Below, one piece after another: positions 13,451-40,370 of a stretch of DNA of 64,000 nucleotides; the stretch's first letter is position 1, and each line of letters opens with the position of its first letter. The notes beneath the pieces were generated by a model, which ran no database searches, had not been told where the DNA came from, and saw nothing but the letters and a program-made list of their open reading frames with translations. The stretch lies in assembly GCF_006345805.1 (NCBI RefSeq), contig NC_042999.1, positions 59,210,001 to 59,274,000 of the forward strand, in the 5' to 3' direction. A program made the translations under genes and the position numbers. This stretch comes from Octopus sinensis (taxonomy: Eukaryota).

Positions 13451-13871
13451 ATATATATATATTTCTCACCCCACCTGACGTCGCACGATTACGCATTCTC
13501 CCCCAACGGAGTGAACTGGAGCGACGTCAAATGGTGTGTTCTACTCAAGAATACAATGCATCGCTGGTGCAAGAATTGAAACCACACTCTTACGATCACG
13601 AACGCAACACACTAAGCACTAACCCATGCGCCTCAATGAATGTCTAGGTATTTAGTCGTTAATTCGGAAACAGGTGATTCAGTTGATCGAACAACCGAAA
13701 CCTGATTATTGAACAATTATGTTATTACTTACTAGATGTATTCAAACTAATAATCTCATCTGGATTGTTAAATTCACAACCTTGTGAGCATAATAACAAA
13801 TTTGAGGACAGGATTCTATTTCAGTTTCTATAATAATGCTTTCGTTATTTTATATTCTATATAGATAATAA

Positions 13872-13934
<63 letters not shown>
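13872..13934. repeat. (AAT)n microsatellite
   Basis: Directly visible. Confidence 0.95.
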
Positions 13935-13936
<2 letters not shown>

Positions 13937-14222
13937 GAGGTAACCAGAATGTGGAATCTAAAAACAGAAACAATTCCTATCATAGTAGGTGCATTAGGTA
14001 TGATAAAAAATATTCAGACAAATACATAACAAAAACACCAGGACTTACAAACACATATAACATACAGAAAATTGCACTACTAGGCACTGCACATATCCTA
14101 CGCAGAACACTTTCCATACAATAACCATCAGAGCATCACAACAAATCACAGCACATACCCAAGGCACACAGAGCTGCGCTCGGTAGTGAAGTGAAAGCAC
14201 GCTATAAAAAATAAAACTACTG
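13935..14222 (+). mobile_element. 3' end of R4/Dong-like non-LTR retrotransposon (restriction-like endonuclease C-terminus plus 3' UTR)
   Basis: Translates (one frameshift) as EVTRMWNLKTETIPIIVGALGMIK...IQKIALLGTAHILRRTLSIQ*; flanked by (AAT)n on both sides. Confidence 0.8.
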
Positions 14223-14242
14223 AATAATAATAATAATAATAA

Positions 14243-14351
14243 GTGGAATATAAATTAAGTGTGGAGTATTAATTAAGATGTGGAGTATAAATTAAGAGTA
14301 GAGTATAAATTGAGAGTGGAGTATAAATTAAGAGTGGAGTATAAATTAAGA
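14243..14351 (+). repeat. Six tandem copies of an 18-bp unit GTGGAGTATAAATTAAGA
   Basis: Directly visible; encodes the VEYKLR repeats at the start of ORF 14280-14831. Confidence 0.9.
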
Positions 14352-15000
14352 CATGACAGAGTTGGCCAATATCTACACTGGCTAATAAGTCGGCATTACA
14401 ATATCAAAACTGCCGACAAGTGGTATAATCACCACCCTGAAGCTGTAACTGAAGGAGAAAATGTAACGATTCTGTGGGACTTTCCAGTACATACAGACCG
14501 AACCATCAAAGCCAATAAACCGGATATTGTTGTGAAAGATCAAAACAATAACGTTTGCTTATTGATCGACATGAGCATCCCCTGTGATCATAATATCTCG
14601 GCGAAAGAGTTTGACAAGCTCAGAAAATATAAAGACCTGCTCATTGAAATTGAGAAAATGTGGCATCTCAAGGCGGTTACAATACCAGTGATCGTAGGAG
14701 CACTAGGAATGTTCAAGAAGGGAACCGAAAATTATATGAGAATGATCCCTGGCTTACCATCCCTGCAAGAAGTGCAAAAGATTGTCTTAACTGGCACATC
14801 ACACGTATTGAGAAGAGCATTGTCGATGTGAGAACTGTTACTACCCATGTATTTTAATTTAACTTTAAAAAAAAATGAACGAACTAGTGAGTTTAGTTTA
14901 ATGACCTACCAATGTATACTATAAGTTTCTGTGCCCTAGGAGTCGGGAAGACACTCGGCAAGAAATGGAAGCAAATTTGAAAGAAGAAAAAAAAGGATAA
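14334..15000 (+). mobile_element. 5'-truncated R4/Dong-like non-LTR retrotransposon with intact restriction-like endonuclease ORF fragment (to 14831)
   Basis: RHD...LHW, ILWDFPVHTDRTIKANKPDIVVKD, IDMSIP, KYKDL and PVIVGALG are the PD-(D/E)xK endonuclease signature of R2/R4-group elements; ends in (TAA)n at about 15000. Confidence 0.85.
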
Positions 15001-34164: not shown

Positions 34165-34395
34165 AACAATAATAAATCTCTGAACGAGATATAAACAATA
34201 ACCGCTCGACAACGTAAGGTGTATTGGCCATCTGAATGTGGCTAGCCACTGGGTGGGGTGTTACTGATGTTTTAGCCCCAGGGGATCAACGTCGTCTAAA
34301 GTCCTTCTGGTGACGTTGATCGCCTGGGGCTAAAAGCATCAGTAACCCCCCCCCCAGTGGCTAGCCACATTCAGATGGCTAATACACCTTATGTT
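34165..34395. mobile_element. Fold-back element in (TA)n, homologous to the 39795-40316 ribozyme element
   Basis: Inverted arms 34211-34293 / 34312-34395 with several mismatches; shares CCTGGGGCTA, TAGCCA(C/T)ATTCA(G/A)ATGGC and TGTTTATA.CTCG.TC.GAGATTTAT with 39850-39964. Confidence 0.8.
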
Positions 34396-34419
34396 ATATA
34401 TATATATACATATATGAAT

Positions 34420-38757: not shown

Positions 38758-38796
<39 letters not shown>

Positions 38797-38800
<4 letters not shown>

Positions 38801-39785
38801 CATGCTGGAAGTCAATATATACCTTTAGTTTTCAAAAGATCTGATCTAAGCATCTTAATACATTTTCAGCAATGTAGAATTTACAATGCAATTATTCTTT
38901 TTTCATTCCAGTTACCATTATATTAAACATGTGCGAAGATTAACAATGCCACGCACAAAATATTCAGCAGTACTGGCAGATTTTCAAGGAGGTCGTATTG
39001 TTGGGCAATCTGAGGCTGGTCTTAGTCAGCGAAAATTTGCTGAAAATCTTCAAATTCCTCTTGCTGCTATGAATAGAAGAATGATAGTGCATTTCGGAAG
39101 CCAAGGAAAAGGATCGATCCACAGATTCCCGTCCCTGCCGTCACAGGCCCTCAAAAAGGAAGCTTCACTGTTTGAAGAGAATTGTGGAAACGAATCACGT
39201 TCGAAGGCTTCTGGCATTGCAAAATAGCTAGAAGTTAATCCAAGAACCTCTGTTACAAAACTGCATAAGCTTGGGTATTATGGACGAGCAGCTGGAAGGA
39301 AACCTTTCCTTCAACTAATTAATAGCATGAAAAGAAAGAACTGGGTAAAGGAGATGTCAGAAAAATTCAGTTAATTTTGGGATAGATTTATTTTCTCAGA
39401 TGAAACGAGATTTGCATTATTTTTCAGACAGTTGACGTGTTTGGGTCTGGAAGCTTCCCAATCAAGAATTTGATTTGAAATGACTACAACCAACTATGAA
39501 ATATGGCGGTATCTCTGTAATGGTATGGGGAGCTGTCACCAACAATGGTCGTTCTGAGCTGATCGAATGTCTTGGAACCATAAACTTAAGCAAAAACTAC
39601 TTGTGATATATTCACACGATAACATAACCAAAATGGGTTTTTATTCATGGAAGATGGGGCTCCATGACACACAGCGAAAAGGAATCAATAATGGCTGAGT
39701 GTAAATGGGGTCAAAAAGCTTCCTTGGCCGAGCCAATCTCCTGACATGAACCCAATTGAAACTCTTTGGAGCATACTAGTAACAC
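38797..39785 (+). mobile_element. Tc1 (DD34E) transposon, 5' part
   Basis: TA|CAGACATGCTGGAAGTCAATATATACCTTTA TIR; HTH-like ORF 38886-39227; motifs IFSDETRF, VMVWG, FMEDGAP and [20 protein letters not shown]. Confidence 0.9.
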
Positions 39786-39794
39786 ATAGTGACG

Positions 39795-40313
39795 CAAATA
39801 CTGAGAGGACACAGATAGTGTGTCTATAGCCAGCCGGGGGAGATATCTTCCTGGGGCTACAAACTACAGTAGCATCCACCCTTATGGGTTAGCCATATTC
39901 AAATGGCAAATATTCGCCACGATGTTACCGCTACTGTTTATAACTCGCTCTGAGATTTATCATTGTTTGATTTCACTTTTTCAATATCAGTGTCAATGGA
40001 CACTGGAAAAAGTATATGTATTTGTGAAGGGATCTGACTTCTCGTCGACAACCATGTTTGTCACACGCTGATGAAAGGTAAACACCTTGAAACTCGGGTA
40101 CGTGTGTATCATGTGTTGAAGACGGGGAGGATGACTCCCCTTCACAAATACTGAGAGGGCACAGATAGTGTGTCTATAGCCAGCTGGAGGAGATATCTTC
40201 CTGGGGCTACAAACTACAGTAGCATCCACCCTTATGGGTTAGCCATATTCAAATGGCAAATATACGTCACGATGTGTTACCGCTACTGTTTATAACTCGC
40301 TCTGAGATTTATC

Positions 40314-40316
<3 letters not shown>
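39795..40316 (+). mobile_element. Retrozyme-like / Penelope pLTR-like element, 1.5 copies of a ~350-nt unit
   Basis: Direct repeats 39795-39964 and 40145-40316 flank a canonical hammerhead; ends in (TA)n; no meaningful ORF. Confidence 0.8.
40062..40106 (+). ncRNA. Type I hammerhead ribozyme (minimal)
   Basis: CACACG-CTGATGA-AAGGT(AAAC)ACCTT-GAAA-CTCGGG-TA-CGTGTG: perfect 6-bp stem I, 5-bp stem II, complete core; predicted cleavage after GUA at 40100. Confidence 0.9.
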
Positions 40317-40348
<32 letters not shown>

Positions 40349-40370
40349 TATATATATATATATATATATA

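Follow-up and report, generated by a model that had tools for sequence, protein, structure and literature searches.

Penelope-type insertion ends and a recurrent LINE target site in a hammerhead retrozyme family of Octopus sinensis

The element considered here lies on the plus strand of a 64,000-nucleotide stretch of Octopus sinensis DNA (the window) and comprises 1.5 copies of a 350–352-bp unit. An earlier note on this DNA had described ~170-bp direct repeats with a period of 350, and these are borne out: the first repeat (39795–39964, 170 bp, unit positions 1–170) and the second (40145–40316, 172 bp) have starts spaced 350 bp apart and differ by five substitutions and one 2-bp indel. The 5′ end of the first repeat is a variable truncation point. 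The second repeat can be divided into a part that extends as far as the short 3′ end of the family (unit 129; 40145–40273) and a 43-bp “tail” (40274–40316) that reaches the long 3′ end (unit 170), the end used by this copy. An (AT)n microsatellite, the usual neighbor of the family, stands at the 3′ junction (40316–40370). On the opposite side, the start previously given, 39795, is probably 9 bp too far in. Positions 39786–39795, ATAGTGACGC, form a 10-nt inverted mini-arm (minus strand) that stands head to head with the main arm and shares its last base with it; the reverse complement, GCGTCACTAT, is the short 3′ end in four sampled arms. The four short-end 10-mers of the commonest type have two occurrences in the 64-kb window, and a mini inverted long end is present at five other single-arm loci. 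A target duplication was looked for at both flanks of the window copy, and none is readable; nor does any open reading frame of at least 90 aa lie over the element.

Outside the retrozyme, and as context only, a decayed DNA transposon occupies 38760–39779 (plus strand). Its family, with 896 candidates genome-wide, is probably Tc1/mariner-like, as judged from translated motifs. The transposon breaks off at 39779 and lacks its 3′ part beside the retrozyme; nine of nine relatives run on with sequence that is missing from the window region. Farther away, open frames at 14277–14831 and 13837–14124 have what we take to be a resemblance to the restriction-like endonuclease found toward the C terminus in R2/R4-type non-LTR elements.

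The central feature of the unit is a type I hammerhead ribozyme (40062–40106, plus strand), recognized from its sequence: stem I (CACACG/CGTGTG), CTGATGA at 40068, stem II (AAGGT-AAAC-ACCTT), GAAAC at 40089, CTCGGG at 40093, and GTA at 40098–40100, the last of which places the predicted cut 3′ of A40100. The cut triplet is GUA in this copy and GUC in relatives. The hammerhead had been called perfect, which goes too far. Its stem II is closed by an A–U pair, and its stem III has just two base pairs and a tetraloop. Taken by itself, the 45-nt core is also prone to misfold, a CUGA:UCGG fold at −13.0 kcal/mol being favored over the active fold at −7.4, a gap of 5.6 kcal/mol in a model without tertiary terms. 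In canonical hammerheads, the stem II closing pair is typically G10.1–C11.1. The GUA/CUCGGG form is a trait of the subfamily (55 of 92 pattern hits) and involves no private lesion, and the CTGATGA plus GAAA core is present in 79 of the 92 pattern hits, which come from 103 loci. No Rfam hammerhead family was detected, either at the gathering score or at E ≤ 10.

As the earlier note had proposed, stem I continues into a long helix. This rod (40018–40151, plus strand) carries the hammerhead at its tip, with its motifs at 40018, 40038, 40121, and 40136–40151, and its fold is far better than those of shuffled sequences (−61.4 kcal/mol and z = −6.54 for 40015–40155, with 0 of 200 shuffles as good; z = −6.22 for the 350-nt unit, with 0 of 100 as good). 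Pairing is also maintained among relatives. When the window copy was aligned with 29 LINE-flanked hosts, near-identical and non-host rows being excluded, 90.4% of hammerhead cells were paired, 10 of 23 pairs had changes on both sides, and 0 of 500 shuffles reached the score, although kinship inflates this test and the structure was taken from the window copy. In slid controls, pairing drops to 24–47%. From the pairing and the two-sided changes in these 30 relatives, we read the ribozyme as being under selection. The near-palindromic stem III, previously noted as compatible with dimeric cleavage, fits this picture, in that the palindrome is kept through covariation as CUCGAG, CUGCAG, CCGCGG, and CUAG; Cervera and de la Peña, in the accessible portion of their paper, link palindromic stem III to dimeric cleavage (PMC4209133). 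Among 25 sequences in which both rod arms were found, the outer nine pairs are formed in 214 of 225 cells, with both-side changes at three pairs. Because the predicted transcription start, near 40044, comes after the outer 5′ arm, this arm could pair only in read-through, monomer, or circular RNA. Self-cleavage 3′ of A40100 is a prediction from a conserved structure.

Upstream of the hammerhead, the unit carries what we predict to be a promoter of the U1/U2-like snRNA type, with a start near 40044. The predicted proximal element is a motif match (39980–39997, plus strand; core ATCAGT at 39986). In 24 of the 24 top U1/U2 loci, ATCAGT is found at −57 to −61. Its counterpart in the window lies at −58, counted from 40044, a +1 that was placed from a LINE junction (see below). 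The 11-mer around the window ATCAGT, CAATATCAGTG, is identical to U1 upstream DNA. A U1/U2 matrix gives the site 10.3 bits, the top score in the unit, and 7 of 127,966 sites in the window score as high. ATCAGT itself is a short motif that occurs 35 times in the window. Divergent hosts, down to ~62% identity, retain it at the same spacing. A second promoter-like motif, TTTGTGA, lies at −23 (40021–40027, plus strand), where it overlaps the 5′ arm of the rod; U1 has TTTGTGA/TTAGTGA at −20/−21. There is precedent in newt satellite 2, a hammerhead repeat with an internal snRNA-type Pol II promoter (Coats et al. 1994, as cited in the consulted part of PMC2220036). In the newt the promoter was shown experimentally, whereas in octopus it is a motif match to U1/U2 upstream DNA of the same genome.

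The unit belongs to a large family. In a genome of 2.72 Gb, rich in AT microsatellites, a first look gave 2,943 candidates, of which the 40 scored were mostly 91–100% identical. A 33-nt core pattern is matched exactly 190 times, and tandem arrays of 2–7 units occur. The unit is non-coding, 350–352 bp long, present in tandem copies, and free of LTR, PBS, PPT, or ORF. By these testable features, the element is a non-LTR retrozyme, an element of a known kind, and the initial retrozyme identification stands in the sense of a non-coding, hammerhead-bearing, retro-copied repeat of ~350 nt. Metazoan non-LTR retrozymes have been described by Cervera and de la Peña (2020) in coral, mussel (350–390 bp), and axolotl (330/350 bp), with cleavage demonstrated, RNA circles shown for all three, and Penelope-like elements (PLEs) proposed as the mobilizer (PMC7229834, from the available text). 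The octopus family shares with these the non-coding unit within 150–450 bp, the type I hammerhead, the short palindromic stem III, the partial or full tandem copies, and the self-paired monomer. It differs from them, as they are described there, in that most copies are dispersed, 5′-truncated, and in many cases inverted, their 3′ ends being fixed at two points next to (AT)n, and in that its cleavage and circles are predictions. The window copy is an ordinary single-hammerhead member of the family. It contains one hammerhead, whereas Li, Clavereau, and Pollet (2026), in the accessible part of their preprint, count as active those elements with two, so that it would be classed as an inactive monomer. 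With a single hammerhead, it could not release unit-length RNA alone and is likely a dead end for making circles.

How were such copies inserted? We examined arm ends, defined by BLAST, at 63 loci found with an exact 37-nt pattern near the 3′ part of the unit (111 matches); these loci, 23 of the first 30 (overlaps dropped) plus 40 fetched, represent one subfamily and include a few duplicated loci. Among 98 arms, 51 have their 3′ ends at unit 166–178, 42 at 117–135 (29 of them at exactly 129), and 5 elsewhere, so that 93 of 98 end at one of two fixed sites. The two sites lie ~42 nt apart, giving a tail of 41–44 bp, and AT repeats follow 80 of the 93 fixed ends. The 5′ ends, by contrast, are evenly spread over the unit, with a median arm of 200 nt. 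A 5′-end cluster at unit 297–318, seen in a first, length-biased sample, was not reproduced in the second and was dropped. The two 3′ ends are combined according to a rule: the 32 head-to-head pairs comprise 28 with a long end on one arm and a short end on the other, one with two long ends, none with two short ends, and three in which an odd end is involved. Leaving odd ends aside, 28 of 29 pairs are long plus short (p = 5.6e-8). The window copy obeys the rule, since it uses the long end and 39786–39795 is the inverted short end. The earlier note had looked to circularly permuted genomic copies as a sign of a circular template. This expectation fails: only the 5′ ends are spread. Elsewhere in the window, at 34165–34397, two short arms of a diverged relative, ~75% identical to the unit, stand head to head and are flanked by (AT)n runs. 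One arm apparently has the long end and the other the short end, and a hammerhead is apparently absent.

These ends have close counterparts in PLEs. According to the available text of Craig et al. (2021), PLEs have inverted truncated arms and a 30–40-bp tail at one end (PMC8557442). Frangieh et al. (2024), in the sections we could consult, report that the PLE protein PAc cuts AT-rich DNA and extends both strands, that its reverse transcription starts at two internal RNA sites bounding the tail, and that in vitro uncleaved RNA is the main template, hammerhead-dead mutants still being inserted (PMC11167929). The octopus unit resembles PLEs, as these sources describe them, in its two internal starts, its optional tail (41–44 bp versus 30–40 bp), its AT-rich targets, its head-to-head truncated arms, and the position of its hammerhead upstream of the starts. 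It differs from them in having no ORF, in looping back into itself, and in the canonical rather than minimal size of its hammerhead, and also in having no DNA homology to the autonomous PLEs sampled. Judged from the pattern of ends, with two fixed 3′ ends, variable 5′ ends, inverted arms, and microsatellite targets, the structure is the Penelope “tail” signature. The match of the fixed ends, inverted arms, and AT targets to PLEs and PAc makes it likely that a PLE protein mobilized the retrozyme in trans. Candidate proteins exist, as the genome holds young, intact RT plus GIY-YIG ORFs of 775–781 aa with 3′ UTRs ending at (AT)n; examples of intact RT plus GIY-YIG ORFs lie at G000:C1:207475531-207477873 and G000:C8:18818744-18821068. 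Two young families of this type have ORFs of 781 aa (L134) and 775 aa (L138) with a Cys-rich linker; a hammerhead-like core lies ~500 nt past the ORF in the L138 family, and a simple pattern found no hammerhead core in the L134 family 3′ UTR. Another hammerhead unit (CCGAUGA...GAAACUCAGAGUA) forms inverted pairs in (AT)n and adjoins PLE 3′ ends at four loci (L142, L131, L106, and L143).

Given such PLE-like ends, (AT)n targets, and inversions, the units might instead be solo pLTR fragments, that is, 5′-truncated insertions of an autonomous PLE whose ORF-bearing copies lie outside our sample. Two further points favor this idea: Li et al. derive frog retrozymes from pLTRs (bioRxiv 10.64898/2026.07.22.740005, in the part available), and our GIY-YIG search scored only 150 of 5,029 candidates (147 GIY-YIG matches; 46 loci fetched, 30 short and 16 long, partly overlapping). 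We nevertheless think it unlikely. None of the 63 sampled loci has the unit joined to a Penelope ORF, as the earlier note had proposed to check, so the unit is not an ordinary pLTR contiguous with an RT plus GIY-YIG ORF. Three of the 63 (two of them duplicates) lie near unrelated PLE fragments; these three loci were considered as pLTRs and rejected, because the insertions are separate and the fragments are neighbors only. Upstream, arms enter the previous unit rather than an ORF, 15 of 93 exceeding one unit, and a 7-unit array also has no ORF. Among the 46 fetched GIY-YIG loci, no DNA common to the unit and an autonomous PLE was found, apart from separate unit insertions at two of them (L128 and L138). 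The rule that fixed ends imply an ordinary pLTR therefore offered a false choice. With fixed ends and no attached ORF, both permuted circle copies and the ordinary pLTR fail, which leaves an ORF-less element with PLE ends. An ancestral origin of the unit from a pLTR is possible.

The nature of the RNA template can be approached through the 5′ ends and through the sequence of successive laps. Arms that reach the ribozyme cut site stop within 8 nt of it in 3 of 48 cases, and arms that reach the predicted start stop there in 1 of 35, in both cases versus a background of ~10%; no pile-up of 5′ ends was found at the cut, the start, or the promoter. Of the arms with fixed ends, 15 of 93 are longer than one unit and 2 of 93 contain two complete hammerheads. 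Within one arm, successive laps agree at 268 of 276 polymorphic cells, as against 68% between elements (103 loci), and the inverted arms of one element agree at 488 of 509. Divergence is 0.022 within elements and 0.044 between them (103 loci), and, as a point against, the two repeats of the window copy differ at one family-polymorphic site. The lack of stops at the cut or start, the matching laps, and the covariation of the outer rod point together to an RNA template that was likely end-less, that is, a circle or an uncut multimer. The suggestion that a 1.5-mer records reverse transcription around a circular RNA survives in part: the template had no stop at the cut site, but an uncut multimer would give the same 1.5-mer. 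Contigs from four runs, presumed to be RNA, cover the unit in pieces; strand, ends, and circles are unreadable from them, and they weigh on neither side.

Between the two forms of end-less template, we rate the circle a little above even; the scarcity of arms with two complete hammerheads and the short median arm count against it. The same Penelope copying from a linear, uncut multimer transcribed from homogeneous arrays, with no part for circles and an incidental hammerhead, is appreciably possible, though we lean against it; it departs from our preferred reading in a single step, the processing of the RNA. In its favor is PAc itself, for which uncut RNA is the main substrate and hammerhead activity is dispensable for insertion, as noted above. 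Moreover, arrays of 2–7 units exist, locally expanded arrays would likewise yield matching laps, and the lone core misfolds in the energy model. But a multimer starting at the +1 of the unit should pile some 5′ ends there, where only the single stop among 35 is seen, and arms with two hammerheads are rare. In addition, the core, the stem III palindrome, and the outer rod are all conserved by covariation in hosts down to ~62% identity. One array was considered as proof of rolling-circle copying and rejected: the 7-unit array L071 (G000:C2:197247900-197250640) has PLE-type ends, but every unit has the dead core CCAAUGA and the inner units have variants lacking in the outer ones, features that point to local expansion.

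The predicted start site of the unit is also the target of a second element, which, like the promoter-like motif, is absent from the earlier note. A LINE was recognized as the shared 5′ flank of three unit loci, this flank being the LINE 3′ end. With the last 351 bp as query, 403 candidates were obtained and 40 scored; 38 were examined, two segmental duplicates being dropped, and one further locus brought the sample to 39. At 36 of the 39, alignment of the 3′ flank with the unit falls in one register and scores above all of 200 shuffles. Of the other three, one has a target copy followed by a second, stacked LINE, one is off target, and one is rearranged. Target duplications of 13–21 bp are present at 29 of 39 loci, and their sequence varies with the host. 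The LINE inserts repeatedly at one site of the retrozyme unit family. In the window copy, the corresponding 20 bp (40042–40061, plus strand), which are duplicated upon insertion in sister copies and lie within the rod at the predicted start, are empty. Across 34 loci, LINE 3′ ends share a median identity of 95% (lowest, 90%) and their hosts one of 79% (lowest, 62%), and 107 of 297 pairs whose LINEs are at least 95% alike have hosts below 80%. LINE and host identities are correlated (Spearman 0.47), so that in some composites LINE and host may have been copied as one.

The LINE encodes a CCHC-type ORF1 together with an ORF2 containing APE, RT, and zf domains (Pfam PF00098, PF03372, PF00078, and PF13966). 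The best PDB match of ORF2 is human LINE-1 ORF2p (E = 2e-51), and a homologue search gave nine unnamed proteins at 26–29% with no named Tx1 reference among them. From architecture and targeting rather than from a tree, we would assign it to the L1/Tx1 type. It shares with Tx1-clade LINEs, as far as the accessible descriptions go, the APE-RT-zf order, the CCHC ORF1, and a single site, with duplication, in a multicopy repeat or snRNA gene. Tx1 LINEs nest in transposons, satellites, and snRNA genes, with examples that include Tx1L in Tx1D, Keno in U2, Tx1-Mar in Mariner-N4, and Tx1-9_AMi in Harbinger (Kojima 2015, PMC4494074, in the part consulted). Unlike the Tx1 LINEs known from that text, the octopus LINE has as its target a hammerhead retrozyme at a predicted start, and the same lineage is also found at the +1 of U2 and U1; “Sat” targets in Kojima's figure could include hammerhead repeats. 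A literature search, with most subscription papers, Repbase, and supplements outside its scope, turned up no publication that describes a LINE with a retrozyme as its target or retrozymes with PLE tail ends. In the available portions of PMC10886601, PMC13282606, and PMC10294476, there is nothing on the retrozyme element; the second of these lists, for Octopus vulgaris, families of L1-Tx1 and Penelope that were active recently. Several loci are of separate interest. At L170, L161, L163, and L164, LINE copies are stacked head to tail with a target copy between them, the upstream LINE being of a different subfamily in three. At L181 (G000:C24:11650110-11650452), a truncated LINE with a 16-bp duplication sits in a far more distant hammerhead repeat that still has an upstream ATCAGT.

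The frequent junction of the two, at 36 of 39 LINE loci, raises the idea that the L1/Tx1 LINE mobilizes the unit, either as a SINE-like partner or as a terminal part of itself. The 5′ junction of L069 might be cited in its favor, because the ~75 nt of host sequence that precede the LINE match a different host subfamily (compare L066 and L156) and the remaining host does not; this mismatch could reflect either a carried donor flank or later conversion. The idea is, however, largely refuted and in our estimate very improbable. The LINE sits within the unit, between host-dependent target duplications; truncated and stacked copies occupy the same site; there is no 3′ tail common to unit and LINE; LINE DNA adjoins only 1 of 103 unit loci; and the same LINE lineage is present in U1 and U2 genes.

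Those snRNA junctions, two in U2 and one in U1, were found by two patterns. One U2 case and the U1 case have sister LINEs ending at the +1, and the other U2 case has no match to the retrozyme LINE. Over its last ~590 nt, the U2 LINE copy has 93–94% identity to LINEs of a sister subfamily that occupy the retrozyme site at three loci. It begins with a 14-nt 5′ leader that matches a retrozyme start at 13 of 14 positions, as would be expected, in this one case, if the LINE RNA began at the +1 of its donor. At L290 (G000:C7:27338779), a U2 gene is directly preceded by an AATAAA-ended sequence unlike the retrozyme LINE, possibly another element inserted at the U2 +1. Does the promoter guide the LINE? 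The site might be set by the sequence preference of the endonuclease (T-rich/ATCG plus flanks), the promoter match being incidental, a proposal that we consider serious though short of an even chance. U2 (TTT|ATCGC) and older hosts (TTC|ATCG) have the same first bases, the off-target insertion L149 has a clean 13-bp duplication and partial likeness to the target, and Kojima's accessible text holds target choice to be mainly endonuclease-set (PMC4494074). Against this, the targets diverge past ATCG (U1, ATACTT; U2, ATCGCT; retrozyme, GTCGAC) and all keep ATCAG(T) near −58, a comparison drawn from only one U1 and two U2 junctions, one of the latter without a match to the retrozyme LINE.

Putting these observations together, we think it quite probable that the window holds a 1.5-unit copy of a non-LTR retrozyme that has two fixed ends, mostly beside (AT)n, and was copied in trans by a Penelope-like RT/GIY-YIG protein from an end-less RNA. 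In such a scheme, first, the U1/U2-type promoter within the unit would start an RNA near 40044, 57 nt before the cut. Second, paired hammerheads in tandem copies would cut via the palindromic stem III and free a ~352-nt monomer, which would fold into the rod and then be circularized. Third, cDNA synthesis, presumably by the Penelope-like enzyme, would start at unit 129 and at 170–173, each start serving one flank of a double-strand cut in AT-rich DNA. This would account for the pairing of a long-ended with a short-ended arm, head to head, and for the random 5′ stops. Fourth, the LINE inserts at one site of the unit with 13–21-bp duplications, a choice that may be due to the snRNA-type start. 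A more ambitious extension would be a three-tier parasite system, in which a Penelope protein copies a ribozyme-made circle from two fixed starts and a Tx1-type LINE homes to snRNA-type starts, moving among U1, U2, and retrozyme promoters and borrowing them, its RNA opening with the first bases of the host. This extension is tentative, and we place it somewhat below an even chance.

Precedents exist for the element class, for the snRNA-type promoter (in newt), and for Tx1 nesting in other repeats; this locus contributes the rule by which the ends are paired, together with evidence that the template was end-less. For the reverse transcription of animal retrozymes, a PLE helper has been proposed from co-occurrence and homology in the parts of the literature available (PMC7229834; Li et al. 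2026). Li et al. regard vertebrate retrozymes as non-autonomous PLE derivatives, and only one of nine predicted frog dimers was cleaved, which counts against the cleavage step. The octopus family suggests the same PLE dependence, but where the frog evidence, as presented there, consists of co-occurrence and pLTR homology, here it is an insertion-end signature, and in an invertebrate. The family bears the footprint of a PLE enzyme base by base, each arm using one of two start sites, and copying did not halt where the ribozyme is predicted to cut. A defined substrate, priming sites, and young candidate proteins in one genome make an in vitro test of circle versus multimer possible, and with the LINE at the predicted start and at the +1 of U2 and U1, one could test if a promoter, rather than sequence, can aim a LINE. 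If a Penelope protein does copy a ribozyme-made circle, the octopus family would prove, from genome sequence, the step that is missing from the retrozyme cycle of animals.
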